This document shows, piece by piece, positions 2,020 to 21,411 of a stretch of 21,411 nt of DNA. Within the stretch, counting starts at the first letter, position 1; each line of letters opens with the position of its first letter. Below the pieces are notes generated by a model. The model made no database searches. It worked only from the letters and a program-made list of their open reading frames with translations, and was not told the DNA's origin. The position numbers and the translations under genes were made by a program. Source of the stretch: Psammoneis japonica (Eukaryota); contig QPGO01000160.1 in the NCBI GenBank assembly GCA_008632985.1, forward strand, positions 124,001 to 145,411, read 5' to 3'.

Positions 2020-2749
2020 ACTGTATGTGCCGTTTTGGAAGTAACAGACGTTTACTGCTTGATGCTGAATTTGTGTGTATTTTTCACTTTCAAGCGTTCC
2101 ATGTCGCGTCACCATGGAACCAGCAGATCCCGAAAATGTCGAAATCAGTGCGTTGAGCTGGCGTTGAGTCGAAAGCAAGAACACATGTTTCAAAAATTAG
2201 GGTGTTGTATGTCCATTAAAAGCATAAGGTGCTGAAAGCGCAATGTTCTATCAGATGCGACATTTATCACTACGGCACTGTAGATGCGTGCTTGCTTTCA
2301 ACGGTTTGAGACGTCCGGTGTGCGGCCATTGCCGCTTCCTCGAACAGTGCAGCTGACTCCAGTTCTAACGTCTAAAAGTGGTGGTGGAGGTCCATTTGCG
2401 GAGCTCGAGCTCCAGACCCAATCACCAGGAGCCTGGCAAGCTTGGCTCCCAGGGTGGGCGGGAGGGTCCTTTTGCCATCCAGCCATTGTTGTTGCAACAA
2501 CAGCAACAGAGTGAGGCACTCTCTGCTGTGCGAGATTGGACCGGGACACCGCTGGGTGCAACAGTGCCTCATCAGCAGTGCCAAGCAAAGACTTGGGAGA
2601 TGGAACAGGATCTTGGAGCTCTTTTGTGGTGCAGGATCCAGCCCATTGTCTTGGCAAAAGACAGCCCCCAGGCAGGTGCACGCCACAGAGCCAGCACCTT
2701 TTAGCGGCGCTGGCGCGAAAAGGCGCGACTCCTCCTTTGACATCTTGTT

Positions 2750-4756
2750 GTGCAATGTGGAGGTCACAGCTGAAAGCATTGGCCATGTCAGGGTCTCACA
2801 AGTTCTTGATGGAGCCCGGCAGACAGTCCTTGAGGGCAAGACAGTGGCACTGGTTGTCATTGGTGTGGGGCACTCATGTGCAGGATGGCTGTCGTGGGCT
2901 TGGGTGTGGTGGCAGAACCTTCGCAATGCCAGTGCATGGTGTTGAGATTCTTGTCCGTGTTGTCTTTGGCAAGGGGGTGTTCACAGACATCAAAACAGTG
3001 GGCGCTGGCATCTTGGTGCTGCGCGAGCCCACCAACGAGCTCAAGGTCAGAGTTTGTGACAGCGCCATGGGGGCTGGACCTTGCAGTGAGCATGCAGTGG
3101 ACAGATGTTGGAAGTGTGCATTGCCATGCAATGGGGGGCTGGCACAGTGGGCACTGCTGCAGTGATGTTGCCATTGTGCAGTTTCTGCAAAGTGACATCG
3201 TGGGGTGCAACAGATGCACTGGGGAGCCACACCCCTCTCCGGCTCCTGAGCTGGAGGCATTGTGCAATCCAACAAGCACCAGCTGGAGTGCCGCAAGCTT
3301 GCACAGGTGTGTGGAGCACAAGGGAAGGTCACAGTGCATGTTGGACAGTGCTTGGGTGGAACCCGTCGTGGAGGCAGAGCTGGTTGTGCTCTTGTTGGCA
3401 CATCGGGCTTGCAGGTGGCTGAATGGACCTCCTGCTCCCAGGATGGCCCGTGACATGGAGCAAAGTTCTCCCAAAAGGCTGTGCCATTTGCATGGGGACA
3501 GTCTTTTTTGTGTGGGAGGTGTGGAGGCCAAGAGGTTGGCACCAAGGTGGCAAAGGCAATGTGGTGGCAGCATGATCATTGCAGCAATGGCGTCAATGAG
3601 CCACCCAAGAACAGCTTTGCAGGTTTCCCAGGAGGTGCCCCCCTTGAGGAGTTTCTTGATGACCAAGACAGGGTCAAGCCTGTTTGGGGAGTCATGGGAA
3701 TCAAGTGGCTGGAGCACATTGTGGATGGCATGCGTGAGGATGCAGCACACTTTGTTTGGTTGGCATGAACTGCCTTGCACTGTGACAATTGAGTCATCTG
3801 CAAATGTGTGGATGAGGTGGCCAACTGGCAGGCTTGCCATGATTGCAATGCAGGGTCTCATTGGGACACATGTGTGCATTGGTTGGCATTGCTGACAGCA
3901 GCAGGGTTGATGGTGTTGGAATGGGCCAGAGACTGCAGGTCAGCAGCTGCTTCAGCATGAGCTTGTTGATCAAGTAGATGGCAAGGTGTGTGGCACCACT
4001 TGAGGATGCGGCGGTGGTTGGCTGCATTGGTGATTGTCTCTGTGACTGTGCAGAATCAGGGTGGTGATTCTGTCCAGCCCACACTGTCATGGACTGCTCC
4101 TGCCATGGTCTCAACCAAGCAACCATCTGGTGGCTCTCCTCCCCGTGGGAGAGGCAATGCAGTTCGGCCAAGCCCTGGAGCATCTCATCACCCAAGTTGT
4201 GCATGCTGACCCACCATGGTCTGACATGTGGCTGAAGCTCGGAGTTGCATTCCCAGCACTTGATGGTGAAGAGCCTCTTGTTGCAGCATTCCCCTGTGGT
4301 CGTGCTTGGGCACCACACCAGTGGGGTGGACACAAAGGTTTGGCAGGTGTCAGACCTTGCTGTGAGGCAGGACCATCCACGCTGCCTTTTCAACTGTGTC
4401 CGCCATTTTGCTGTGAAGGCAGTCTCAGAACTTGCAAGCCAACTTGTTGCAACGGCAGCATCCTTGCACACTTGGCTCCACTGAGCAGTCTGCATCAGTG
4501 CGGGCACACCACAATTGCCCAACTGACATGCCAACTGTCAGGCCAGGTGTTGTCCCAGATGGTGGCAGTTGGCAAAGCCACTGTGGCCCTGATGATGGCA
4601 GAAAAGTGTGGTTGAGTCAGAATTCTTGAGCAGGTCAACATCTCTTCTGACAATCTTGCCCAGTTTGTCTGCAGTGGACCAGGCCACCTCAAGCACTGGT
4701 GGGTCTAATTTGCAGCACTTGGGGGTGGCGCCTGGCCCAGAGTGTTGCTGTGTCAC
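2750..4756 (-). pseudogene. Reverse transcriptase-RNase H (pol) remnant of the DIRS-like element, with an internal inversion at ~4078-4294
   Basis: Motifs are spread across ORFs 4538..4756(-), 3794..4534(-), 4061..4615(+, inverted piece) and 2857..3879(-), with many frameshifts. Confidence 0.75.
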
Positions 4757-5978
4757 TTGCAGCTGAGAGAAGCAACCAACTGCACATTGGCAATGCTGGG
4801 CACTGCCAAATTTTGCATGATCATGTCCAACTGTGCATTGAGAGCTTGCTGGAATGTGGTGACCTCTTCAGTGATGCATCCAACTGTGTGCAGGTTGACA
4901 CCTTCCGACAGGTCATCAGGCAGCAATGAGCTGTGAAGTGCACTTTGGTGATTTTCTTGGACAGGGCCTGCAACACCTCAATGGCAAAGAGCCCACAGCC
5001 AAGCTGCTCACTTGCATCTTGCACATGGGCCTGGATGGTGGTGCATGTGTTGCCTTTCTTTGCCTGAGCAGTGGCAGTGCAGACCACTGCAAGTCTTGTT
5101 CTCATTCAACCTGGCAGCACTGCATGCTTTTTAGTGACTTGTGCAAAAACAGTTGCCAGCGGTGCAGAGCTCTTCTCCAGGTTTTGGCATTGCTGGTCCT
5201 CCAGGCACACCATGTGCACATTTTTGGTCACGAGTGTGTCAAGTCCTGCTGCAATTTGTTGTGCCCCAGCAGCCAGGGGTGTCACAACAGTGAGATCTGG
5301 AAAATCCCCAAAGACCAAGGCGCGCTGATGTGCATTGAACAGCTGTGTGTCTTGAGGGGTGACTGTGGGGTGGCAAGTTGGGTGCCTGCACCACACTGGA
5401 CAAAATGGCTGGTTTGCTGCCTGGTGAGTCAAGGCACAATGCAGCCAATCAACAAAGGGTTGGCAGTCAGCCACTTCAACACAGTTCTCCATGGCACCCC
5501 AAATGCTCTCCCAAGCTTGCCAGGGCATGAGTCCATCACCAAAGATGGCAAGGTGGCACTTCTTGTTGGGCAAGAACATGGCTCTGCAGACTCAAATGAC
5601 ATTGGTGTCTTGGTTGTTGGGGTCGAAGGGCCCTGCCATGTCCAAGCCAGGATCAGCAGCCAACAGTTGATCCATCAGTTGAGGGGACAGAACCCTCATG
5701 GCATTTGCAATGTGACAGGTGTTGTTTGGCCACAAGACTGATTGGGGTGCTTGGTTGTTGCACACATTGCCCACAAAGGTGCAGGCATTCCCATTGAAAG
5801 GCAAGGCTGCCATGCCCAAACACATGGGGTGTGGTGTGTGACATGGTGATGGCCTTGTGTGATGTTAGGATGAATCCTCTGCTGCAGTGTTGGGCTCTTC
5901 AATTGGCAGCATCTGTGGCATGGCAGTGGTGTCAGCATTGCTGGCATTGCAGACCACAGCAGTTGACTCTTGTGGAGT

Positions 5979-6002
5979 GGGGGGGGGGGGGGGGGGGGGG
6001 GG
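5979..6002 (+). repeat. Poly-G homopolymer (24 nt)
   Basis: Seen directly. It reads as poly-Pro on the minus strand. Confidence 0.95.
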
Positions 6003-6180
6003 TGCAATTCCTTGCAAGGGGACATCACAGGCAGCACAGGCTGTGGCACATTGATTCTGAAAGGGGTCCTTGGCAGCATCAGGAAGCAGCGGTGGCAGGG
6101 CACCACTGGTGCTCCCAATGCTGCACATTGCACTGGTTGAGGCTGTGGCTGCATGGCAAGTGGCACCCCTTGTTGCACAG

Positions 6181-6207
6181 GTTGCTGCTGCTGCTGCTGT
6201 TGTTGTT
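6181..6207 (+). repeat. (GCT)5(GTT)3 trinucleotide tract
   Basis: Seen directly. It reads as poly-Gln or poly-Ala/Thr on the minus strand. Confidence 0.85.
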
Positions 6208-7049
6208 GAAGTTGAGCTGCAGGTTGAGCACCCACTGCTCCTGCAGCAGCAGGTGAGCCATGGCAATTGAGGATGAGCAAAGGGGAAGGTCATGTCTGGG
6301 CAGGTTCTGTTGTGATCCTTTGACTGTCCAATCCGCAGTTGGCAAGTGGTGAGCAAGAGGAGGTTCACTCTGCAATGGACAGACTCAAGCAGATCAACAG
6401 CCCTTTCTTGATCTTTCCTGTTCTGCAGTGTTCAAATGATGTTGAACTTCAGTTGTGTCATCAGACAACCACGAAGGCATGAATTTGATCTCATGCACAT
6501 GTGGCAGTGTGCTGCCTGGAAAAGTGCCGTGACTGCATGCATGATGTTCACCCACACATTTTCAATGTGTTTGCTGTGACTCCCAGATTTTGAAGAGTTG
6601 CACACAAATGGCACTTTTCATGTGTGCTTGACAACAGACTGAGAGTGATCCACTGTCTGCACAGGAATGGCCTGCTCACTGAGACCCCACCCCACACACA
6701 CACTGGGAGAATTGCAATCCTGGTGAGAGGAGGAGCGCTGTTTGGCTGGGGTGAAGAACAGTGCAGTGCAGTGGTGAGTCACTTCCACCACCTGAAACAT
6801 GTGTTGAGCAGTGGCAGCCAGTGAGCATGTCCAAATGACTGAATGATGGAACCTGGGCAACATTTTTTGTCAGAACATTGCCGCAGTTTGCTGCAGTGTC
6901 AATGCAGTCCTCCAATCACACAAGATCTTGCTCTGTCCATTCCCAAAGAGCAAAGTGATGAATGTCAACAATGTGTCAAGAGTGTGGCATGGTGCACAGG
7001 CTGACTGGTGTTGGCCATCACAAGGGATGACAGAAAATGAAGATGTCCA

Positions 7050-10000
7050 GTGGAAGAAAGGCAACGCTCCTTGCTGCTGTCCAAACAGCAGACAAGTTTT
7101 TGTGCAGAGACCATTGTGCAAGAGCCAACAGACATGCATTGTGAAATCAGCTCCACCATCATCATTTTTCAGAGCTCAAGAATGTCAGAGGCAATCACCT
7201 CACAAACACAATGGAGTGACAGGGTGGGGGGGTGTGACTTGTGTGACTTGGTGTGTTGGATGGCGGCACTGTCAACAACCAACCAGTTGTCACCAAACAT
7301 GTGGCTCATGTCGTAGATTGGGGCACAACAAATTTCGACATGTGGGTTGGCTGTGGCCTCAATGGCAGCTTGTTGCTTCTTGGGGAGCCAATCCACAGGG
7401 AACTTGTTGACGAAATGGATGATGCCCATGATGGGGCACCCCACAAGCATGAAATGGAAGAGGCTTGCATCATTGACACAATGAGTCATGGTGACAAACT
7501 TGCCAAGGGGCTCATGGGCATCTTTGGGAAGCAGTTCCTCCACATTTCCATGTGTGGTGTGCACCCACCAGCACACTGGCTTCAAGCTTGCATTCATCAG
7601 GTTGGGTCCTCTCAAGATGATCCATGGAGTCTTGCCATTTGTGTTTGTCATTGCACGCATCATCAAGTGCCATGATGGCATGCTTGCAGCTCCATGGAAC
7701 TTTGCAACCACACTTGCAACAAGGTGCAGTGCAGAAAGAACACAACTTGGCTTGATTGGCTGCATGCAGAACAGGACCTTCTTCTGGTGCCTGGCTGTGG
7801 CATGGAAATGCATCCAACCTTCAGCACCCAGGAGGCCATTCTCATGAGCACCACTGCCTTCATGACTCTCAAGTCTGACAAGCAATGGCACATGTGGCAC
7901 ACTTCTCTCATTGAACAAGTTTGAGCCCAGGATGTGGAGCACAATTTGGGCTCCACATGTCAACCTGTGGCTCCCAAAAACAAGCAGCTGTTTGCTGAAC
8001 AACAGAAGCACAAGTCATTTGTTTTTGAATGCATCTTGCAAACTGACAAGGGAAGGGTGTCTGATGCCCAAGCCATGCATTGCAAGCTTTCTGTGTGTGC
8101 AACCTTGACTCCACTCATGCATTGCTTGAGTCATTGATGACCCTGCTCACCCACCTCACCACTGCTTGTCTTGGTGGTGACCTCATCACTGCTTGTCTTG
8201 GTGGTGATGGCACATCATGGAAGGGACCCATTTGTGGCTTCATCCTTCACTGGCAGGACAGCTGCACAAGTTCAAGGCTCTGACCCCATCTTCTGATCAC
8301 TTCTCTCCTGGACAGAAGTTTGTCATGCAGGAGAATGTGGCTCACCCCATTGCAGAGCTTCGCTCTGTCAAGAGTCAAGCCAATCAGCATCACAGACAGA
8401 GTGGGAACAGCCTTGCACTTGTGATCATCATTGTGAGCATCTGCTCCTTTCCAGGGTCCTGCAACTCCCAACAATGTGCCCAAGCATCATGCAGCCAGTG
8501 GCCATTTCTTTGAATGGTGCAAGAATGGTGACTGATGCTCCACAGGGTCCTGTGGATGCAAGAATGTCAAGCATTTCTACTCTGTTGGCTCAGTGGTTGC
8601 AGCCAACAAGGGTTCTCAAGCCACCCCACCCCCCATTGGATGTGGCTTGAGCAGACTGGACTCAATGGCATGACAGTGCAGAGTGAACTGATGGCATGCA
8701 TCAGAACACCAGAAATGGAAGCTGCCATGCCCAAGAATCCTTCATTCCTGGAGCATGGAGCATTGACAAGAAAGGTGCAGCAGCATTGTCTGGCAGTCAT
8801 TGAGCAGCAATGGATGGCGTGCCAAAACACAGCACAGATGCAAGCCAGTGATGTGATCCTTCATTGCCATTTTGTCTTTGGGCTGACAGGGGTCTCATCC
8901 TGCCTTCTCCTCAATGACAGGAGTGCAGCTTAAATGGAAGAACCTTCATTGCCAACAATGGCATCAGAATCATGCTGATGCATGGATTTCTTCACCTCTG
9001 GATTGTGACAAACCAATCCCAGCACATCCAACTCACTTCGCCACTTGACTCAAACACACTTGTGAGCACTTCTGTCATCACATGTGGCATGTCTTCTAAA
9101 AGTCATGCTTCAGAGAAGTCTCCCAAAGAATGGCAGTTTTCTGAGCATTGCAGGGTCCCACTGCAGTCATCACAGGGATCCAAGCATGCTCATGAACAAA
9201 AATGCCTCTGGCTTCTGAAAAGAAACCCATTTTGGCCCCACCTTTCTGACACAGGGATCTTCTCAAACCAAGCAGACAACATGCACCACACCAGCCCTGA
9301 ATGCTGCACCTTGTGCTGCAGTCAGTTTCAGACCACCACAGATGGCATTTTCCCCACTTTTGATGCTCATTGCAAAAGTTGACACATGTGTGGAAATGGG
9401 TGCTGCTTTTGGTGCCCATGGAGACAGGTGCCCAACAGTTTGCCACAGCAGCAAAATCTCCCCTCCATCAACTGTGTGGGCACAAAGAAGCTTGTTTGGC
9501 CTGTCAACACTGAACCAAACGGCCTCCATCCATGACGCATGTTCAACAGAAGCTTGCATCTTTGGCCTGGACAAGGAAGAATTGGTGAGCGCCAGCCATG
9601 ACTCTGTGCTTTTGCTTGTTGCACCACAATTTGATGACAGCAATGTGCAGAGGCTTTTGCCCACTGCCAACTGAGCTGGGTTGCAAGTCACCACATCCTG
9701 GTGCAGATTTGACCCTCACTCTCAATTTGCAGTGAACCTGCATCAAGGGCCTCCAATGCATTGATCCTGTCTTCTGGCAATTCCATGGTTGCTGCGCAGC
9801 ACTGTTTGGAATTTCTCCACACCTTGACAGGACGAGGAATTGAATCTTGACATCTGCTTCATTGTTGTTGATTCATCCCAACATGTCATGCTGCAGGTCC
9901 TGTGCCAACCAACTGATGCGGGAAGGCCACCGGCCTGACAACACGGCAGACAGCAAAGGCTCAAGGCTGGATGTCAAGCATTGCTTCTTGAATCAGCAGG

Positions 10001-11150
10001 GTCAACTTTGTTTCAAGCAGCCAGAGATTCGCCATTGGGTTCTGTGATCAGCAAGCAAATGGCACGCACAAGAGCAGAAACAGCACTCACAAGAAGCTCA
10101 CCTGACACATTGGAGACAAAAAGCCCTTGGTGTGCTGGCATGGTCCCCAGCATTCTTTCACTTGCAGGCCAACCTCTGCAGGATGATGAGAGATCTGCCA
10201 CCTCCATCAGTTGGGGTGGGTTGTGCATCACCTCTTTGACAATTTCTCCCAACACAGGAACCTCAGGAATTGCTTTGATGTCGCTTCTCATGATTTGGAG
10301 AAGTGCGTTGCACACCCCCTGCTGTGTCCCCCAAACATTGGCTGCACCACCCAGCACACCAACATGAGGAGGTGCGCCACATTTGTTGGCAGATTGAGGG
10401 AGCGAGCAACCCAGACTGGCCATTGGCAGTGCGGCGCTGTTCCACAGGCAGCCTGTTTCACATCATGGAGCTGGCATTTGGCAAGTCTGTCCAACCAAAC
10501 CCATGACCCAGCTCTGCTCAGCAATCCCAGGGTTTGTTCCAAATTTTCAAAAGACTCCAAAGCCCCTTGCTGACAACATTGTGCTTGTGACAATCCATGC
10601 GCACATGAGCGGGTCTTTTGTGTCCCAGAAATTTCCCAAACTCAGAGGGTCCCACACTGGCTCCAATCACAAGCACTTGTGGTGGGGTGAGACTGGTGGT
10701 TTTCTCTGCACTTTGCCTGGCCACCTTGATGGTTTGTTTTCCATGTCGACCGACTCCAACTCATTGGTTGTCATGGCCAAAGAGAGCTGTGGGCCTTCTT
10801 GAGACTTGGCAGATGGCAGATGGAAGCAGCTCAACTGAGATGAATGAATTCTTCCCTTTTTCATGCTTGTGACTGATGCCTGTCTTCCTTCCACCATGAT
10901 CCATGTCCATCAAAAGAGTTGCTTGGCATCATTTTGCCACGGTGCACTTGGCATCTCCAAAATCGACAAGACCACTCAAGGTGGGGTTGTCGCCAATGCC
11001 AGGATGGCATTTTCTGCTGCAAGCAAGTTTGGCTTCCATTGACAAGTGCTGTTTCATTTTTTCCAAGTTTTTCCACATGGATCAGTTCTTCCTCTCCTGG
11101 TGGTTTGGCATGACCAAGAGATTCTTCCAAGCTGATGATGTGGCATGAGC
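7050..11150 (-). mobile_element. Degenerate Ty1/copia (CoDi-like) LTR retrotransposon pol remnant: PR-IN-RT-RNase H
   Basis: Seen: a clear CoDi-type RNase H region at 7169-7560 (ELLPKDAHEPLGKFVTMTHCV.DA...GIIHFVNKFPVDWLPKKQ...HMFGDN.LVV...LSLHCVCEVIA). Weaker remnants of RT (DSSNA, AMHGL ~8060-8135), integrase (~9800-10400, LITEP, EKFQTVLR) and protease (TALVNGS ~11040) lie in copia order. LTRs were not identified. Confidence 0.8.
8154..8207 (+). repeat. 27-bp tandem duplication (1 mismatch), each unit with a 7-bp internal inverted repeat
   Basis: Seen: cctcaccactgcttgtcttggtggtga / cctcatcactgcttgtcttggtggtga. The arms tcaccac...gtggtga are perfect in unit 1. Confidence 0.9.
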
Positions 11151-11830
11151 GCCTTGTTCATTGCCTTGCTGCTCCATTGTCTCCTGCCATGCTGTCTCAC
11201 AGTTCCATCCTGCTGAGAGGAGAAGCGTTGATGACCTGCACCATGTGTTTGGAAGAAGAGCATCCCGTTGCAGTCAATTGCTGCTTTTGGAACAAGGTGC
11301 CTCCCACCTGGCTTCAAAGGACACATGAAACATGTGCAGCCAAGAGCGCGAGCGCCAAGCATCAGCGTTGTCATCATCATTTGTTTCTGTCTGTCAGTGC
11401 TGCTCAATGAGAGGCTCCAGTTGTTGCTTTGTTGTTCACTGCTCACCCACCATCATTGCAACTCTGGCTGCTTTTTTCAGCGGGAGGTGTCGGCGCGTTT
11501 GCGCAACTCTGTGCCCGATCCATGAGAAACAGAGTGGTCAAAGTCGGCACTGAAGGGCATCTCATTCATGTCCAACCTCGAGAAATGGCGGTCGTCCCCG
11601 GGAATTGGAAAGGGTTTCTTACGGCAGTCTGAATAAGACAGTCTCAAATCAGGTGTTGTGTTTCTAACTGCTGTGTGTGTGAGATCGATTTTTGAAATTT
11701 TGATTTCTACGCCGATCGCGTAGCGCTTCGTCCTGTCTGGCCGTCGCAAATCTCCCTCCAAGACGCGTTCTGCATGATCGCGCTGGCGCGACACGACCAC
11801 TTCCAACTTGCATGCGGGAAGAAGACTCAT
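11150..11830 (-). pseudogene. Unknown gene starting at ATG 11830, disrupted by two in-frame TGA codons and running into the mutated TE block
   Basis: Seen: a CAA-rich leader (caacaacaaaaaacgcgaacaacgATG) and a 117-aa ORF. ORF 11054..11446 is in the same frame, separated by TGA at 11479-77 and 11455-53 in the context CGC TGA and TGA TGG TGG. Inference: these were CGA/CGG Arg codons. No family was recognised and the 3' end is uncertain. Confidence 0.45.
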
Positions 11831-11980
11831 CGTTGTTCGCGTTTTTTGTTGTTGAACTTGCAGGGAAACAAACGCAAAAACAATATATACCCCTCAAACC
11901 TTTGTATTGCGTTTATAATAGTCGTTAAGGTGTTTCAAAGTAAAAGGGAGTGAGAGAGATTTTCAGAGAAGGAGACGAAC

Positions 11981-12023
11981 GAGAGAGAGAGAGAGAGGAG
12001 GAGGAGAAGAAGAAGAAGAAGAA
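11981..12023 (+). repeat. Purine microsatellite (GA)n(GAG)n(GAA)n upstream of the LRR gene
   Basis: Seen directly, ~60 nt upstream of ATG 12083. Confidence 0.85.
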
Positions 12024-12082
12024 CTTCTGTAATTGAAATTGCTTGAAGAGTAAGAACAACAAAGAAAAAGAGGCGAAACATC

Positions 12083-14719
12083 ATGGCGGAAGAAAACGGC
12101 GATACCAGTGGCCGAAACAATTCAAGTAAGTCTTTGTAAACTCTTGACAATTGAATCGCAAGTGTAGTCGCCTAACGCCTCTCCCGCATAACTACCACCT
12201 TTTCTTCCCTTCTCTTCATAGCATCTCGCCGTACCAAAAACAAGAAGCATCATTCCTCACGTCAAGCTGACAATGGCGTAGGAGAGCAATCAGAATCTTC
12301 GAAAAAAAGAACTACTCCTTCTAGTCGCCGCCACACAAATGGCAACAGCAGCCACCGCCGCCGGAGCTCTTCCCCCGGTATTTTGCCAGTTAGTTCGTCT
12401 CGCAAGGTAATTGCGGTGGAAGATAAGCAGTCCAGCACATCACTGGATCAAGAGTTTTTGGCACAAGAATCCTTTACAGCAACGAGACAACGACAAGCAC
12501 GTACCAACGAGGACGCCAAGCTTCAATCCGTAATGGAGGACGATGTGGCGGCGAAAAAACGAGTCTCCAAAAGGAAAGCTCCGGCTGCAACAACACCGGG
12601 TGCAGTGGCTATGCACGCCGACTCATCGGACAATGCCGTGTTGCTTCAAAACATAATGGACGATGATGCCAAGAAACGAGCTGCAGGATCGCTTGGTCCG
12701 GCAACGACTGTCGTTTCTGAAAAGCAACGACGCAGTACTGGACCGGCGCTTGCTCCCGCAGTTGATTATGAAGAAGAACCTCAAGACGATGGTATGGAGG
12801 ACGAATATTACAGCAAGACCTTTGATTCGGATGATGACGATAAGATTGACCAAGACAAGGCTCCTGAAGAAGAACAATTGCAGCCCGAGCAACAGGTGGC
12901 ACACGGACGCGGGGTGGCGCCCGACTATCGGCACGTGGCGGAGGATGATGGACGCTTGGCGGTAGCCGTTGCCGTGGAAGACGACGAGGACAATGTTGAT
13001 TATATTCCTTCCGCTATTGAATACGACCCAGACGCCAAACCACCCCTCTACAAGAATCGACGATTCCAATTGTACGGAGCACTGGCTGCTTTGCTTCTCT
13101 TGGGCATTGTCGTGGGAGTCGTTGTAGGCGTACTGGTCGGCAGCGACACGTCACCCCGAACCCTGGCGCCCACGGCGACTCCCACCCTGATGCCAACGTC
13201 ACAAGAACGCGGTGAAATTGTGGAACGATTCGTGGCACTCGTGGGCAATGCTGTCCAACAGCCCGGCACACCGGAATTCATGGCGACGGATTGGATTTTA
13301 AATCAAGATCCCATGGGACTCAATGAAGACTCGGAGAATTTGACACAACGATTCTTGTTGGCACTCTTTTATTTCTTCACTACACAAACTTCTGATTGGC
13401 GTACCTGTGGGGCTCCTTCTTTAGATGAAGATGAGAATTGTATCTTTGATGTCTTGGGATTTGGCTTTGATTCAGACAGTCAATTCTATACCGGGATTCC
13501 CGCGATTCGATGGCTATCTGGCAAATCCGAATGTGAATGGATTGGAAGCATTTGTGACGATGTGGGCACAATTCGAGCCATTGACATGTGTGAGTCAATA
13601 ATCAAGAGTGCGAATGAATTGTGTTTTGTCTGTCTACTCATACGCTCACTGAATTCTGTCATTCAACTACACTTTGCGCAGGGGGCAATAACATTACCGG
13701 ACCACTCCCGCCGACGCTAGCCAAATTTCCATTCTTGCAAAGCATCTCCATGGCACATAATCAATTCACGGGAAGCATTCCAGAAGAGTACGCCAGTATG
13801 CGCCACCTTGCAAACTTTGAATTGCATTATAATGCCTTGACGGGAACGATATCTCCTTCCTTTTACGACGCCAATGCGCTACAGAATTTCAATGTCGCTA
13901 GCAATGATTTGGACGGACCGATTGAGGGTGCGCCAGGATTGACTATTGATATGTTGGAAGAGCTAAAAGGATTACATCTCTTTGACAATGACATTACGGG
14001 GAGCTTTCCAACCGGTATCGGCAATTTGAAGTTCCTATCATTTATGCGCATTTCGGATAATCAGTTTGACGAGCAGCCCATTCCAACGGAAATGGGACTG
14101 CTCACGTCTCTCCAGGAAATGTGGCTTGATGGCAACAAATTCAACAGCACAATTCCAATTGAATTGAGTACCATGGAGAAATTGAGTGAGTAACATTGTG
14201 CTGCGTGGTGTGTATTGGAGTGATTATGGTTGTAGTCGGAGGATACGCATCTAACTCAAAATCGGTTCACTCTATTTCATGTTTACAGCCGATTTGCGTG
14301 TCAACAACAATCGCCTCACGGGTCAAATTCCAGAGTCGCTCTATGAATTGACGGATTTGGTCTTGTTGTTTTTGGAAAAGAACCAACTCACGGGACCTCT
14401 CAGTCCTTCTGTAGGACGCTTGATTGACTTGGAACAACTCCGTTTACGAGAAAACTTGTTGTCAGGCGCCATACCGTCCGAGCTTGCACTTCTGTCCAAA
14501 ATGCTGCTAGTCTTTTTGCACCGCAACAAATTTGAGGGTGCCGTCCCGCAAGAGGTGTGTGCTAACGTTGGGTGTGGAAGGCTTCAGTTTGTAAATGCCG
14601 ATTGTGGAGGACCGACACCGCCCAATCCATGCGAGTGTTGCACCTCGTGCTGTGATCCCTTTGGAATCCCGCCAGGGGTTTGTCTTTCGACGAACTATTT
14701 GGATTGTCGGCGTGGCTAA
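12083..14719 (+). CDS. Single-pass membrane leucine-rich repeat (receptor-like, kinase-less) protein, 4 exons, ~781 aa
   Basis: Seen: exons 12083-12125, 12222-13589, 13682-14185 and 14289-14719. The introns are GTAAGT..TAG, GTGAGT..CAG and GTGAGT..CAG, and all splice in frame. The protein has a disordered N-terminus, a TM helix (LYGALAALLLLGIVVGVVVGVLV), a PT linker, an LRR N-cap (WLSGKSECEWIGSIC), plant-type LRRs (LxxNxLTGxIPxxL) and a Cys-rich C-cap (ADC..CECCTSCC). Confidence 0.92.
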
Positions 14720-15154
14720 GATTGACAACGTCAAGATTGTCGTGTGGCGGTTTTCATGTCGCAGCTGAGGCAAAAGTTGCTGCACTTGTGATTTATCGAA
14801 AATTAGCTGTTTTTTTTTCCCAGGATATCATTGTTGTGAAGAGTGGCCATGTTCCACCTGCTTTTCTCTTGGTCGTTGATTTCGTGGGTATGGTACTGGA
14901 GATGGTGGTGGCATACTCAGGAGGAAACAACGCTGCAACGCTTTACAAGCGACAAGCTCCTCCCCAACACGAATCCTCATAAATACATGGGCGTTGCTCT
15001 TTTGCAAATGTTAATAGGTACACATAGTGTTAATGAGACCGTGTGTTCATTCGAGACAGTAGTTAGCAACACTATTGCATAGATAGTTTTTGCATTCCGT
15101 TGGCGCATCTCCAGCGAGTTCAAAACAATCCGGAGTTACCGTCACAACATATAA

Positions 15155-16373
15155 CTATATTGAATCTTGTACAATCACAAATTCTTCTTCTGAATCACTG
15201 CAGCTACAAGAATACACGGCAATGGTACCCCAATCCATTCCGCCACCCGAATCGTGCAATTGTTTCACATCATCATTCAAAGTAGCAGTATCGGTTGGTG
15301 CATGCTTGTCGACGTGTAGCAAATGCAAGAGGGACGGCATGATTTGAAAATTAAAGTTGCGCTTCTTGTGACATTTGGGACACGATGGAATGACAAGGTT
15401 CTTGCTCTTTGGGATGGAACTAACATGCCATAGTACAACAAATAATGGTGAGAGTGTGATTAAATTAGTCCACACCAACGACAACAAATAACACAATAAC
15501 GTACATGGACCAAATGGGATTGCCCGAGCCCTGTCGAATCACATGATTGGGATAGAGCTTGACGTTTTTCATAAATCGATTCAAGGCTTGTTCATCACGA
15601 CCCACGGATTCATCCTTTTCTCGACAAGTAGTGGTCGCTCGTTGCTGTTGTTGCTTTCCATGCCCCAGTGCCGTCAATATTTCTTCATCGTCCTCTTGCT
15701 CCATGTACCGTGCCAGCATTTGTTGAATCTTGTCGTCATTTGTATTGGTAGTACTGTTATAGTCTTCGTCAAAGTCATAGGCTTGAATCGTCCAACAATC
15801 AAAGGAGTTTTTCGTGTCGGTTTTGTTGGCATTGTTTCTGTTTGACTCTGTCTGACTCTCGATGGGAACTTGCTTGTTGTTGTTATCCATTATTTGCTCC
15901 ATGGCCTTGACCATGGCTTCTAAATCCTTCTCCGTAGTATCATCGTTTTCATCATCACTCATGTCCCAATCATTATCATCCAATAAATCGTGTTGTTCTT
16001 GTCGTTGCGCAGTAGCTGGTTCCGCGTCATCGTTTGTTTCGTTCTTCTTTTTGTAGCCTTGTTTACAACGCAACGCACAATACACTCCACCACCACCCAA
16101 ACTAAACTTTGACTTGTCAAACAACGTCCGTGTACAAGAGGCCCGGTTGCATCCATAAACACTTGTCGTTGTTGTAACGTCGTCATCATTTACCAAAATG
16201 GAAACTATGTGGTGCATGCGTGCTTGACACACGGCGCAACTCGGTTGTCGTTGCAACGAAATACCACCAATAAAGGACCATGAACCTTCGACGATTTCAT
16301 CCATGTCACGGCATTTTGATAATGGTTCATAAAGGTAGACTTGTTGCTGTGGGTGATTGGTCGACGACGCCAT
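15155..16373 (-). CDS. PDCD2L: PDCD2-like / TSR4-like protein (PDCD2_C domain), 2 exons, ~377 aa
   Basis: Seen: exons 16373-15505 and 15419-15155, with an 85-nt intron GTACGT..TTAG that splices in frame. N-terminal motifs are FIGG..P.CAVC..M and VYGCNRASC. C-terminal motifs are P.HVIR..GNPIW, IPSCPKC..R.F.FQIMPSLL and MDWGTIAVYSC...EEFVIVQ, typical of PDCD2_C (knowledge). No MYND finger is present, hence PDCD2L rather than PDCD2. Confidence 0.88.
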
Positions 16374-16840
16374 GGCCACTCGTTTTTGTTCTTCTAGCTA
16401 TGGCGATATTTTTGGAAATTCAATGATATCATCGTTCTTGAAAGTACTATAATATCAAATTGAAGTACAACGGAAAAGAGGCCACAGTATTATTGAGATC
16501 AAGATAAATTTCGGAAACCCCTCGCATGCGAGACCATGACGTTCACATCACCGCGAGCGCTTTAGAAGTACTTTCGACTTTCATTATGCCGCCTACTAAA
16601 CACCAAAGCGCCGTACTTCTCCCGATCTACCCTGCTGCTATGAGGCAAATCCTTTAGCATGTCATCTGTCAATGGGAAGATCAATCGCATCCTTGTATCC
16701 TTGTACATGTCGTATACTTTGTCTCAGTTACAAATGGAAAGTGTGGTGCATAATGCATAAAGTGACAATCCCAGAAACGGTTTCCTTCCCTTTCTATACT
16801 CATCAAGCAGGCTAATGGCGTGATCCATCATGATGTCATA

Positions 16841-17150
16841 TTATTTATGCTTTTGGGGATTTCTCTAGAGTAATCTTGCGGTTTCGGGCAGTCTTCCAAC
16901 CTATCGTCTTTGAAAGATTCAAGGTCACTCGCATTTTCGTCCATCAAATCATAGAGGCATCATTGCCTTCCTTCCCACACCCAAGTCCCATGTTGAACGT
17001 TCCCAATTTCGGTTTTGCCAATCCACTCGGCAGCATAATCCGTGCAATCGAGTTTCGCAACACGACATGCCCCTTGTTTGCCGCATTGTCAAAGACACCA
17101 AGGGTCATTTTGAGCACTTTGTGAAGTAACGGTTCTGTTCCCTTTCTCTA
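16841..17150 (-). pseudogene. Possible decayed coding fragment
   Basis: Seen: one minus frame reads LLEKGNRTVTSQSAQNDPWCL*QCGKQGACRVAKLDCTDYAAEWIGKTEIGNVQHGTWVWEGRQ*CLYDLMDENASDLESFKDDRLEDCPKPQDYSREIPKKHK*. It is protein-like with two internal TGA. No family was recognised. Confidence 0.3.
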
Positions 17151-17802
17151 GTAGATATCAGTATGTCACATGCTTTCTACACTTTCAAAGGCTTTTGCTT
17201 CATCTACTAAAATGCATGCCCGGCATGTTTGTAATTGGCACATTTTCAAGATGCACAAAAAACAGTCGTGTTTAGAACAAGTCGACTGCCATGTGTGCCG
17301 AATGACGCTTTTCCATTTTGCAAGACCTGTGTTGTTTCTTTGAGTGCGTTCTGTAAGTGTAATAATATTTGCCCATGATTCGTCGTAGATCGCAATCAGC
17401 CGTTTGAGAGATTTTGTTTCGAATGAGGAACAATAATGACTCTCGGCGGTCATCGATTCTTGTTTTTTTGTGTTATTAATTCTGGGTTGTTTCAAACAGT
17501 TTAACGATGCTTGAAGTACTGTACTGATACTTGCGCTAAGGAATAACATTTTCACAAGGAAGTCTTCTAGAACAAAGTTCCTGGCATTGGGCTAGTTGTA
17601 TGACTACCGGCACCAAAGTGTTGGCGAAATAGTTCGTTTTCTCCCCAGACACTTTTTAGTAGTAGTGACTCATTTACGTGGGATTCCACAGGATAGGTAC
17701 GCGGGACTGCAGGGGACCAGAAATATCCGAAAACCTTCCATGCCCGGTCCCGCCTTTACATTTTTCACATTTGCTTCTCACAAATTCACATTCTTTGCAA
17801 TC

Positions 17803-18435
17803 ATGAAGCTCTCCGTCGTTGCTCTCTTTGCGCTTTCCCTTGCTTTCTACTCTGCTTCTGCAGAGGCTCTCAAGAGTGAAAGCCCTGGTGCTGTCACCAA
17901 AACGGGCGGGCTTCGAGGCTTATCCGAGCCAGCTGCAGAACCCGCGGAAGTGGTGGTCTACGAAGAAGAAAGCGAGGAAGAAAAGAAGCCCGCCAAGAAG
18001 GCTCATAAGAAGGGCAAGGGCAAGAAGAAAAAGAAGAAGCCCGCCAAGAAGGCCAAGAAGCCCGCCAAGAAGAAGCCTGCCAAGAAGAAGAAGAAGCCCG
18101 CCAAGAAGCCTCTCAAGCCGGCTCTTGCAGACAAGGTTGGCAGCTCCTCTAGCTCTTCCACAGGTACTCCTGGTGACTCTTCATCAGGTAGTACAGGCAA
18201 GCATCGTGTCAAGAAGGCTCACAAGCCGGCCCGATATGCAGGCGGTGACAGTGGCTCGTCTGGAAGCGCATCTAGTTCGTCTTCAGCAAGTGAAGGTGGT
18301 GATCCTGCCAAGCATCCTTACAAACCGGCACATGCAGGTGACGACAGTAGCTCCTCCTCTGGAAGTACCACGTACGGTGTCTCTTCTTCATCCGGTACTG
18401 TCTCGAAAACCCCTGGCGACTCTCACCCCTACTAG
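17803..18435 (+). CDS. Secreted Lys/Ser/Gly-rich low-complexity protein, silaffin-like (candidate biosilica or extracellular protein), 210 aa
   Basis: Seen: a signal peptide (MKLSVVALFALSLAFYSASAEA), GLRGL (an RXL motif), an acidic run, repeated KKPAKK (KxxK) and Ser/Gly blocks. Codon use is strongly AAG/GCC biased. Knowledge: signal peptide + RXL + KxxK + poly-Ser is the silaffin/cingulin pattern. The true start is taken as ATG 17803 rather than TTG 17596. Confidence 0.8.
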   Translation: MKLSVVALFALSLAFYSASAEALKSESPGAVTKTGGLRGLSEPAAEPAEVVVYEEESEEEKKPAKKAHKKGKGKKKKKKPAKKAKKPAKKKPAKKKKKPAKKPLKPALADKVGSSSSSSTGTPGDSSSGSTGKHRVKKAHKPARYAGGDSGSSGSASSSSSASEGGDPAKHPYKPAHAGDDSSSSSGSTTYGVSSSSGTVSKTPGDSHPY

Positions 18436-19329
18436 GCACGTGCTACCGTCGTGAAATTAGAAAATGCCATGTCGCTCGATTGGGTGTCTAGAAAATGATG
18501 CAACGCGACGTTGTTGGCAACATTGCAGAGGATGCGTCCTTATTTGCTTCAGTATGATACTACTAAAGCACGGTATATTATCAATGTCATGACAAGGTGT
18601 AGCGTTTACTTTAGCGTAGTTCTGATTGTTTTGTGTTGCTTTGTTTGAGGACGGTGGAGGACTTGAAGGAATGCTCCTCTGGTGGCAACAACTAGGATTT
18701 GTTGTGGAACTGGCGATCATAATTCCATAATTCGACTCCAAAAGAATGCCCGTAACCTTGCGATTCAATATAGTTGACTCTAAAGGAGTGAAAATTGTGC
18801 TTGCCAATTGGCATGAAATCATGGCCACATCATTTGTGACAGGAAGTAAGTTGCAAATTTTTCGACGGCTCACGATGACCAGAAAGGTGCAGATTAAATC
18901 ATAATTTCTTTTGATATCTCATCGGTACATTTTTGTTGTAAATTTGTTTTTGCTGAGGCAAGAATCTTTGTTTGTAGTGGCGGCGCCATTGTCGATCGTA
19001 GGCCGTACATTAAAATGAATGGAAAGCGTCCTCTCGCCAACTGAATTTGTGACCAACATTTTTCAATACATGAAAGATAATACGTGCCTGTATATATATA
19101 TTATATTCATCCTTGTGTTAGAAAGACATATAACAGTAGTATGACATTTTGGTACCTTCTACTCCGCAGAACTGGTCATGATAGACCACTACACGCTAGA
19201 CCAAATGCAGACCACGAATCTTCTTTAAATAAAATGACGTGGCAGATGAATCTTGCAACAATCTTATTTTGCATTTATGTTCATGAATGCCACAAAATAT
19301 ACTTTAACGCTTACTGTTCGCTCATAACG

Positions 19330-21411
19330 TCTCTGTCGCGCCAGGATTTTTGGTGAGCCAACAACAAACAACACATGCACCGCAGTGCACACAGTTGTGG
19401 CTTGCACTTGTTTGTTGTCAACTTATCGTTTCACACATGATGTCAAACACCAATGAAGGTTCATCTGTCCTTTTGTCCTCAGATCATGAGGCAGATAAAA
19501 GTGATGACAATGATTTGTCAAGCTCCCAGCAAGAGCTGTTGGAAAACAATGACAATGCAATTTCTGATGCACATGGAGATGACAGTGGTGCAACTGACTC
19601 TGCTCAGTTTACCTCCTCTCAACCAGCACTTCCACCCCCTCCCTCTCTTAAAAAGGTCTCAATGCCTTCATTTATGAACAATTGTGGGGAGCATTCTGAA
19701 GCACACCCTCTCAAAGAGCAGAGTGAGGAACTTCTCAAGAAGAGCTGGTCAGCTGAGGATCTTGCACAAGAGATTGTCAAACTTGCTCCCACAGAAGAAG
19801 ATGTCTCCAGTGCCAATGAGAACCAACGATCTCTAGATTCTTTCAAGACAAAGTGCAAGCTTGTGTTTCCTGTTGGTCGTCACTTTGCTGGCTGCAAGCA
19901 GTTGCACCAAGCTGCCACCCAGTTTCTTGACATGTGGGCCATTTCTTGTGTTCATGATGGGAAGCAAATTGTTTGTCACTTCAGTGATGCCAAGTCAGAT
20001 GCATGCAAAGAGAAAAAAAGAAAGCCTTTGGATCAATTGCAAGGCAGTGGCAGCCGCAGGTGCCAGAAGCAGTCCATGAAAGAGCGGTGCAAATGTCCAT
20101 TTGTGACTCGGTGCTCTCTTGTCAACAAGCGTGTTGACCCTCAATTGGGTGCAACAAAACCAGGCATTTTTCACCTTGTGAAGATTACCGCAGCAAACTG
20201 TCACCATTCTCATGACCTCAACACGGTTTTCCACCGCAAGGCAAAAGAGACTGGTGGCAACCTCCAACCAAATCTTGCTTGTCTTGAGTCAGTGATTGAT
20301 CGGATTGAGTCAAATCCATCAGTGGAGCCCAGGGAACTGCGGCCATTGTTGCAGAAGCACATGCCAGTCTATGCCTCAATGGATGCAACCTTCATAAAAA
20401 ATTTCAAGTGTCGTGTCCAAACATGGTTGATCAACACAGACCCCCAGGAGCGTCAGGTTGCAGCTCAGTTTGCAGAAGACCTGGCAAAGAAATGCCGAAA
20501 GAGTGCAGCTGATGAATTCATCATCAGTGACTCAACCATTGCTCGAAAGAATCTACATGCCATGCTTTGACGTGTGATGCAGGAGGACTCATCCACTTGG
20601 AATGCACTTCATTTTCTTGAAGCCATGAAAGAATCAAACCATGGATTTGACTTCCGATTGATGCGTGATGACAATGGCAGACCAGAAGCAGTTTGCTGCA
20701 TGACCCTTGAAATGAAACGTGACCTCAAGAGGTGTGGTGATGTGCTCCACCTAGATGCTCAGAAGCGACAGCACAACAAGGCTGGTTGGCCATGCATTGG
20801 TCCGGCAGTGAAGGACTCTGAGATGAAACCTCGTGCTGTTGCAGAAGGCCTCTGCCTGGAGGAGGATCACAAGCACTGTCATTTTGTTCTTGAGTCTGTG
20901 GAAAGCATCACGGAAAACAAGTGGCAAATCTCAGATGTCAGGATCATCTTTGCTGACCAGCACCTGACCAGTGGCTTTGTTGAAAGCCTGGGCAATGACC
21001 TTGACATTGTGCTGTGGTGTGATTTTCACCATGCTTTCAATGAAGTTTGGCCGAACCCTGACAATTTTGGCATTTTCCATCATGAAAAGACAAAGGACTG
21101 CCTCCGGATAATGCTGCAGTGCAGCACAGAGGAAGAATGGGCCCATGCATTCAATGAGGCCAAAGTGCATGTTGCTGATGATGCTCAGAAAACCTGCATT
21201 CTGCGAGACATTTTCTCTAAGCCAGAGTGCCATGCGGGGCACCATCTGAAGCAGCTGGCCGGCAATCTTGAGCTTGGTGGTTCTGTTCCGGCAGAGCAGA
21301 ATCATGCTGGCATTGTCCCAACATTTGGCAGAGGTGCCACATGGAGCATTGCTGAAAATTTGAAGATGCTCATTGAGCGACAGAGTGCATCAAGCAAGAA
21401 GCGACAGCAGG
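19330..21411. other. TpA-depleted hypermutated domain 2
   Basis: Seen: about a dozen TA and about 30 CG by eye in ~2 kb of the ORF, with an abrupt change from the TA-rich sequence at 19080-19327. Confidence 0.9.
19437..21411 (+). mobile_element. Mutator-like (MULE) DDE transposase, inactivated by one TGA and Tyr-eliminating substitutions; runs off the window
   Basis: Seen: a single frame from ATG 19437 to the window end with one stop (TGA 20568-70, context ML*RVMQ). It contains CKCPF...HSHDL (WRKY/GCM1-like N-terminal domain), GDVLHLDAQKRQHNKAGWPCIGP, RIIFADQ, CDFHH and GSVPAEQNH, i.e. the D, D, CxxH, E signature of MULE transposases (knowledge). Confidence 0.85.

Follow-up and report, generated by a model that had tools for sequence, protein, structure and literature searches.

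Loss of TpA and CpG from mobile elements in a 21,411-nt stretch of Psammoneis japonica DNA: evidence consistent with two separable transition processes

What removes nearly every TA dinucleotide from 9.2 kb of DNA that lies between genes of ordinary composition? This question is raised by a 21,411-nt stretch of Psammoneis japonica DNA (contig QPGO01000160.1, positions 124,001 to 145,411), called the window below, in which a zone at 2375–11619 and a second block running into the end of the window are almost free of TA and poor in CG. A preliminary description of this DNA had proposed a hypermutation of transposons that converts TpA to TpG or CpA and is accompanied by loss of CpG. Our analysis covered the window and contigs assembled from a public sequencing run. 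It led us to the reading that both TA-free blocks consist of mobile elements, now dead, altered by two separable transition processes, of which the one acting at TpA is like the hypermutation of integrated viruses reported for Bigelowiella natans (Mettrop et al., bioRxiv 10.64898/2026.01.13.699255, preprint dated 2026-04-14). We give this reading a probability of about 0.75.

Dinucleotide composition and limits of the two blocks

Dinucleotide counts were compared with the expectation from base composition and are given as observed-to-expected ratios (o/e). The two blocks, and the names used for them below, are as follows.

2375–11619 (9245 nt), no strand assigned: the zone, TA-purged, CpG-poor and TG/CA-rich dead mobile DNA of at least two elements, delimited by dinucleotide counts and sharp edges, with its left junction bridged by a contig.
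19326–21411 (2086 nt), plus strand: the right block, a MULE-like DNA transposon that is TA-purged and runs past the end of the window, with transposase open reading frames (ORFs) at 19308–20567 and 20571–21410 and one TGA between them.

The zone contained 9 TA against the 528 expected from its base composition (o/e 0.02); these 9 amount to 0.1% of its dinucleotides (9/9244) and bear out the earlier count of about nine against hundreds. If the host DNA of the window (0.0431 TA per nt) is taken as the reference instead, the expectation is still 398. CG was reduced as well, to 104 against 628 expected (o/e 0.17), and the products of transitions at both dinucleotides were in excess, with CA at 1080 against 530 (o/e 2.04), TG at 1122 against 625 (o/e 1.80) and the two together at o/e 1.91. 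The GC content was 52% in the zone and 46% in host DNA. The host flanks were ordinary, as had been described: TA o/e was 0.60 and CG o/e 0.90 at 1–2374, and 0.58 and 0.97, respectively, at 11620–19299. The recurrence of the deficit on a DNA transposon near the right end of the window was also found again, the right block having 13 TA against 142 expected (o/e 0.09), 36 CG against 118 (o/e 0.30) and a CA+TG o/e of 1.72.

All 500-nt intervals starting at 2501–11001 had a TA o/e of at most 0.06 and a CA+TG o/e of at least 1.69, and the edges of the purge were precise to a few bases. On the left of the zone TA occurred at 2366 and 2373 and next only at 2702; on the right it occurred at 9097 and next only at 11620 and 11634. 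At the edge of the right block TA was frequent up to 19325 and then occurred at 19424. Chance is ruled out as the origin of the loss by the final 369 nt of the zone (11251–11619), which had no TA where 15.9 are expected at host density (P ~1e-7) and in which CG o/e was 0.63. The behaviour of CG was not the same. Its o/e ranged from 0.06 to 0.33 among sub-blocks inside the elements and climbed across the right zone edge (11000–11800) from 0.09 to 0.46 and 0.69, reaching 1.36 outside. The decay of CpG grades off at this edge, but TA is absent as far as 11619. The two losses are therefore separable, and this bears on the dependence of the TpA process on 5-methylcytosine (5mC) that had been proposed.

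A mass balance of the zone, symmetrised over the strands, gave deficits of 519 for TA and 524 for CG, together 1043, and a surplus of 1047 for CA/TG. The remaining dinucleotides of the zone had o/e values of 0.91–1.20, and AT, AC/GT and GA/TC in the purged DNA were close to their host values. Around the 22 residual TA of both blocks no clear flank bias was detected, a trinucleotide reading being limited by the overlap of the products of TA and CG decay.

Mobile elements in the blocks and change at conserved codons

The transposase of the right block had 26 homologues, unnamed proteins of about 1100 amino acids (aa), the best with E 4.6e-72 at 48% identity. Four homologues of this length carry a precomputed PF21056 domain (ZSWIM1-3_RNaseH-like), to which the window transposase itself gave a weak match (E 4.7e-4, 20.5 bits against a cut-off of 27.2). 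Tyrosine, whose codons begin with TA, made up 1 of the 700 residues of the window copy and 2.7–4.3% of the residues of 21 aligned homologues. We also located 80 loci on metagenome contigs that encode relatives of the transposase. Their TA o/e was 0.34–0.92, and none of the 80 was TA-purged. One of them (L080) combined a CG o/e of 0.17 with a TA o/e of 0.57. Since the relatives are TA-normal, the family is not natively TA-free, and decay of CpG does not bring loss of TA with it. As an observation on these loci in their own right, L080, L045, L032, L030, L028, L052, L077 and L058 had CpG o/e values of 0.17–0.35 and normal TA, a CpG-only decay in other organisms.

The direction of change was read from conserved codons. 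A tyrosine column of the transposase was taken as conserved when at least 60% of homologues had tyrosine there. In the window copy all 13 such columns had lost tyrosine (to Cys in 4, His in 3, Phe in 5 and Ser in 1), whereas the residue was kept in 177 of the 257 remaining conserved columns (Fisher p = 5.3e-7). Among the conserved columns that differed, 18 of 138 were explained by a single conversion of a TA or CG within the codon (16 TA, 2 CG); shuffled controls gave a mean of 7.2, and 0 of 2000 shuffles reached 18. The products of conversion, 6 TG and 10 CA, were interleaved along the element. Both strands were thus mutated about equally, as judged from this interleaving, from the 1122 TG and 1080 CA of the zone and from the 4 changes of tyrosine to cysteine beside the 3 to histidine. 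A native composition or a foreign origin as the cause of the lack of TA is ruled out by the tyrosine content of the homologues, the tyrosine-column test and the absence of purged copies among the metagenomic relatives.

In the zone, reading frames were sought by the purine/pyrimidine periodicity of codons, because transitions keep the purine or pyrimidine class. The minus-strand frame from 6431 to 3900, with X at its stops, was searched exhaustively with phmmer and gave 272 matches at E ≤ 1e-3 (best 3.3e-38), which fell into two groups, a and b. When the 150 matches listed were compared with the window by tblastn, they covered the minus strand at 2854–4747 and 4762–6143 and nothing in 6144–11619. 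The following features were obtained.

2854–4747, minus strand: remnant of a divergent reverse-transcriptase (RT) polyprotein, from tblastn of the phmmer matches; the region of the YVDD box reads TFADD in the window.
4092–4300, plus strand: inverted piece of about 210 bp of the same RT gene, whose plus strand encodes DCSCHGLN and EAMQFGQALE.
4762–6143, minus strand: upstream ORF of the retroelement, of an unnamed family of 640–720 aa (phmmer best E 3.3e-38).

The assignment to RT came through group b. RVT_1 was found in 8 of its 17 homologues, in all of them under the gathering score; a profile of the 17 homologues matched the p66 subunit of human immunodeficiency virus 1 RT (E 4.9e-4 over 52 positions); and one homologue (P0199) has a YVDD box, which we take to mark an RT. 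Proteins of group a gave no Pfam match in 10 of 10 members examined and no PDB match, and Pfam searches with the zone's own frames (20 long ORFs, 134 stop-to-stop ORFs of at least 45 aa and six read-through frames) gave none either. Members of the group a family (P0073–P0115) were seen to have Cys/His knuckle-like motifs near the C-terminus. The inverted piece carries on its plus strand the DY[TS]..GVN and EAMQFG.ALE stretch that is missing from the minus-strand reading; because it is inverted, two of the motifs noted earlier lie on opposite strands. There is moderate support, from sequence comparison, for one divergent RT-bearing element that would occupy 2854–6143 on the minus strand. The preliminary description had placed two unrelated retroelements in the zone: one was recovered as this element, and the second was not confirmed in the other 5.5 kb.

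Five motifs had been read as altered tyrosine codons, and for two of them the reading agreed with the homologues. VLPHS corresponds to VLPY in 25 of 32 homologues and has CAC as the codon in the window. DCSCHGLN corresponds to a motif with tyrosine at position 2 in 19 of 30 motif-bearing homologues and has TGC there. None of the 7 conserved tyrosines of the retroelement was kept, this DY motif included (0 of 3 in the RT ORF and 0 of 3 in the alignment with group b), and tyrosine made up 0.0% of its segments in the window and 0.7–4.7% of the homologues. Arginine, four of whose codons begin with CG, behaved similarly. Conserved arginine was kept at 0 of 12 positions in the alignment with group a (C4 H3 Q2 W1 S1 A1), at 2 of 11 in that with group b, at 3 of 21 in the RT ORF at 2860–3939, all three with AGR codons, and at 0 of 1 in the inverted piece. 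Overall 5 of 45 were kept, 4 of the 5 with AGR codons, and 31 of the 40 lost had become Cys, His, Gln or Trp, as changes of CGN to TGN or CAN would produce.

Taken with the mass balance and the TA-normal relatives, the tyrosine and arginine tests support the view that the composition of the blocks arose by mutation at TpA, to TpG or CpA, together with CpG decay, on once-functional mobile elements, and that it halts at the element ends. In this respect the earlier proposal stood.

Differences between copies and the process at TpA

The public sequencing run, X1, probably derives from the same sample as the assembly; its contigs have a depth of about 50x. It held 79% of sampled words of the zone. 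Its contigs did not differ from the window at 9506–10893 and showed 15 differences at 3030–4989, and one contig (record 1, 1412–2430) spanned the left junction of the zone. In total there were 270 transitions and 85 transversions between X1 and the window. Among the 33 differences in the zone whose type was listed, 16 were single changes between CG and TG or CA, 10 of them restoring a CG and 6 removing one; 6 belonged to three doublets in which TG was exchanged for CA; 1 was the change from TA in the window to CA in an X1 contig at 5866; 10 were of other kinds; and none restored a TA. Since the CpG differences run both ways, they represent polymorphism and not one-way miscalling. A doublet in the right block is informative about ancestry. 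At 20965–6 the window reads CTG and four X1 contigs read CCA, and the homologues have Leu (11), Ile (9) or Val (1) at this position, so that the ancestral codon was NTA. From such sites we infer that part of the purge probably happened in this genome after the copies had separated.

The summed depth of X1 was about 4x single-copy over the MULE-like element and 2–5x over roughly 6.7–8.7 kb. Over the RT element it was about 1x at a likeness of at least 85%, a poor guide to copy number since independently purged copies are expected to differ by about 11%. No long terminal repeats or internal repeats by which the mutations could be timed were found in the window, either with ordinary seeds or with a purine/pyrimidine alphabet that ignores transitions.

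The process at TpA appears to be still active, because the zone has 9 TA beside 2202 CA or TG, each of which could revert to TA by one transition, and because the TA at 5866 is CA in X1. Arithmetic on the counts, with balance assumed, gives a removal per TA about 250 times faster than the creation of TA per CA or TG.

We propose that the blocks are made up of a MULE-like DNA transposon, a divergent retroelement with an RT and one or more additional elements, and that two processes would have acted on them. The first would be very efficient and bounded by the elements; it would turn TpA into TpG or CpA, with the two strands affected about equally, and would be 91–98% complete. The second would be the ordinary decay of CpG to TpG or CpA expected for cytosine-methylated transposons, less complete and graded at one edge. 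The first process would be of the same kind as that reported from mutation-accumulation lines of B. natans, in which integrated foreign DNA is hypermutated at TpA only; it may act in place on integrated double-stranded DNA, and it may serve as a defence. The leading candidate for its chemistry would be an ADAT2/TadA-like deaminase acting on adenine with a T on its 5' side, the resulting inosine being read as G. Such a deaminase could be guided to foreign or silenced DNA by a signal that respects element ends. The most far-reaching form of this proposal is tentative, and we think it slightly more apt to be wrong than right: that a guided editor of chromosomal double-stranded DNA, changing A:T to G:C at TpA, saturates any integrated mobile element within sharp limits whether or not CpG is methylated, and that it occurs in another eukaryote lineage, an ochrophyte and perhaps a diatom one, distant from the rhizarian Bigelowiella.

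Several points weigh against the two-process reading. The process is seen here as an end state only, and its direction was deduced from that state and not from observed de novo events. TA is palindromic, so A to G and T to C at TpA leave an identical footprint, and limits sharp to the base pair are equally expected from editing before integration. The X1 contigs are an independent assembly of reads and not an independent sample, and the types of difference were read from the 40 of 403 differences that were listed, 33 of these in the zone. At the codon level, only 2 of the 7 conserved tyrosines of the retroelement had become His or Cys, and 7 of the 21 conserved tyrosine columns overall had become Phe, a TAY to TTY transversion that adenine deamination does not predict. 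The Phe outcome, found at 19980, 20652, 21024, 21150 and 21213 in the MULE-like element and at 3804 and 3921 in the RT, was about as frequent as Cys or as His. It may reflect ancestral Y/F variation among lineages, selection for a tolerated codon free of TA, or a second outcome of the lesion.

The alternative that survives best, although we consider it unlikely, places the chemistry on thymine. A TET/JBP-type oxidase would convert the T of TpA to 5-hydroxymethyl- or 5-formyluracil, which pairs with G and would give T to C on either strand, possibly with machinery shared with the oxidation of 5mC at CpG. T to C at a palindromic TA yields exactly the TG and CA products observed, and TA and CG are lost from the same blocks. 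In dinoflagellates, moreover, the thymines replaced by hydroxymethyluracil are preferentially those of TpA and TpC. A single shared enzyme is disfavoured by the differences in completeness and edge profile between the CpG decay and the TA purge, and a keyword search of the literature that combined 5-hydroxymethyluracil, TpA and transposable elements returned nothing relevant. Thymine chemistry likewise does not predict the change of tyrosine to phenylalanine.

Editing before integration, in which RNA, cDNA or extrachromosomal DNA is mutated by an ADAR-, ADAT- or APOBEC-like enzyme and then inserted, is less probable again. It accounts well for a purge whose limits coincide with the element ends within a few bases and do not leak into host DNA. 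Editing of RNA or minus-strand cDNA is, however, strand-asymmetric, and here both strands are about equally affected in a retroelement and in a cut-and-paste transposon. A transposase without any conserved tyrosine also implies a purged copy that could not move itself, and a TG/CA doublet at an ancestral TA shows that copies within one run differ there. In B. natans, by the preprint's account, the mutations arise in integrated DNA (bioRxiv 10.64898/2026.01.13.699255).

That the composition is an artefact, errors of base-calling or polishing on heavily modified DNA having turned TA and CG into TG and CA, is very improbable. Neither for the assembly nor for X1 is the type of library recorded, which leaves room for it, but the X1 contigs show the same TA-free sequence and run across the left junction, the CpG differences among those listed are bidirectional, and the pattern at conserved codons agrees with genuine mutation of coding DNA.

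Error-prone patch repair in methylated chromatin by a Y-family polymerase (polymerase eta, WA to WG, where W is A or T), which the preliminary description had offered as a candidate, can be set aside: A to G at TpA is one of its two WA contexts and AG/CT is somewhat raised (o/e 1.05 in the zone, 0.89 in host DNA), but the AA context is spared, with an AA/TT o/e of 1.09 (host DNA 1.15) next to 0.02 for TA, and the B. natans events are all stated to be at TpA (bioRxiv 10.64898/2026.01.13.699255).

Neighbouring DNA and comparison with known systems

The part of the zone that lies beyond the RT-bearing element is listed as one further feature.

6144–11619, no strand assigned: TA-purged DNA, partly repeated in the genome, with 4 TA in 5476 nt and a CG o/e of 0.06–0.63 by sub-block.

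Purine/pyrimidine periodicity suggests coding stretches in this part, and no Pfam match was obtained in it. Three of the motifs noted earlier (THCV, HMFGDN and AMHGL) lie at 7286–8083 on the minus strand and are carried by the ORF at 7172–8014 (minus strand), for which no homologue was found among longer proteins, a weak form of evidence. Two scans of viral contigs gave no pattern match that would indicate a viral origin of 6144–11619, exact 8-residue patterns being a poor probe for hypermutated DNA.

The RT-bearing element and the MULE-like transposase lie in the purged blocks, and the host genes of the window (RibD_C, Exo_endo_phos, leucine-rich repeat) were spared, with TA o/e 0.58–0.60. 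The best protein matches of a host PDCD2_C-like ORF were 27–33% identical; the DNA therefore does not belong to the published B. natans proteome, on the assumption that the database holds B. natans. One cluster of matches includes a diatom transcript (Asterionellopsis). The leucine-rich repeat gene at about 12.4–14.7 kb was covered by spliced contigs of a run X2 that skip GT..AG segments at 13590–13681 (92 nt) and 14186–14288 (103 nt); it is therefore an expressed gene with two or more short introns. The zone had no usable cover from X2 or from a further run, X3, and this says nothing about its expression. The ORF at 17596–18432 (plus strand) is rich in Lys/Ala/Pro and Ser, has imperfect tandem repeats at 17975–18133 (AKKPAKK-like), and showed 6- and 9-nt indel variants in X1 contigs.

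As regards reading frames, TGA is the only stop in the zone, TAA and TAG being gone, and 32 of the 51 ORFs of at least 100 aa in the window overlap the zone, many of them overlapping each other and on both strands. Purged elements thus carry long spurious ORFs in all six frames and are a trap for gene callers. They also escape Pfam, as the 134 ORFs and six read-through frames without a match illustrate, so that transposon content would be underestimated and gene counts would be inflated. Confirmation across the genome would make this the second organism in which hypermutation targets TpA in integrated DNA, one that apparently belongs to another supergroup, and the first in which the end state is seen on ordinary transposons of both the RNA and the DNA type. 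It would turn a preprint finding in a single species into a comparative question of enzyme, guide and age, and would point to a natural activity that changes A:T to G:C in chromosomal DNA and is precise to the dinucleotide. Should such an editor indeed exist in a second lineage, an 'editing immunity' against integrated DNA would be ancient or repeatedly evolved in protists, and a large share of protist transposons would be hidden from domain-based annotation.

Among known systems, the repeat-induced point mutation (RIP) of fungi is similar in its saturating, dinucleotide-specific transitions, which kill mobile elements and stop near their ends. It consists, however, of C to T changes (CpA to TpA) that create TpA and lower GC, whereas here TpA is destroyed, CpA and TpG are created and GC is higher. 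This opposite direction, a mirror image, rules out membership in fungal RIP. CpG decay by deamination of 5mC resembles the present case in the CpG deficit with a TG/CA surplus, in the change of arginine codons from CGN to TGN or CAN and in the survival of AGR codons; alone it explains 524 of the surplus of 1047 and none of the loss of TA. The hyper-editing by APOBEC3 and ADAR in animals also riddles mobile or viral nucleic acid with context-specific transitions. Those enzymes act on RNA or single-stranded cDNA and are strand-asymmetric, and in the window both strands are equally affected and a DNA transposon is among the targets. ADAT2/ADAT3 and TadA deaminate A34, which follows U33, and the 5'-T context of the changes described here fits this preference. 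Amphioxus ADAT2 is reported to deaminate DNA; we know of no member of the ADAT2/ADAT3/TadA group for which deamination of chromosomal double-stranded DNA at such an efficiency is established.

The closest likeness is to B. natans, for which Mettrop et al. describe, in the part of the preprint available to us, a TpA-only hypermutation of integrated viruses (bioRxiv 10.64898/2026.01.13.699255). Mutation rates there, per site and generation, were about 6e-7 in two integrated viral regions and 3.5e-10 outside them, and 230 of the 231 de novo mutations in these regions were A to G or T to C, all stated to lie on TpA; the hypermutation, more than 1000 times background, occurred in some lines only. 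The B. natans genome is said to contain 124 clusters with depleted TpA and raised CpA+TpG, its low-TpA coding sequences are enriched in RT and DDE-endonuclease domains, and many purged sequences lose their annotation. The same preprint proposes adenine deamination, with ADAT2/TadA-like candidates, and states that ADAR prefers a 5' U (bioRxiv 10.64898/2026.01.13.699255).

As in B. natans, so far as the preprint describes it, TpA alone is converted to TpG or CpA according to strand in the window, and the change is confined to foreign or mobile DNA. The zone would count as a cluster by the preprint's definition, with TA at 0.02 and CA+TG at 1.91 over 9.2 kb; the right block gave 0.09 and 1.72, but only 2.1 kb of it lie inside the window. 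The differences from B. natans, again on the preprint's figures, concern target, extent and stage. The targets there are an integrated nucleocytoplasmic large DNA virus and a virophage, which still have 3.3% and 9.2% TpA, respectively, and here a retroelement and a DNA transposon, with 0.1% TpA in the zone and with CpG decay overlaid (bioRxiv 10.64898/2026.01.13.699255). De novo mutations were seen there, and the end state alone is seen here. The preliminary description had known of no report of such a process in diatoms. A literature keyword search indeed found no report of TpA depletion or hypermutation of this type for diatoms, but the same signature is on record for B. natans. The kind of event is therefore already in print, and the present case adds what is apparently a different lineage, observed at saturation.

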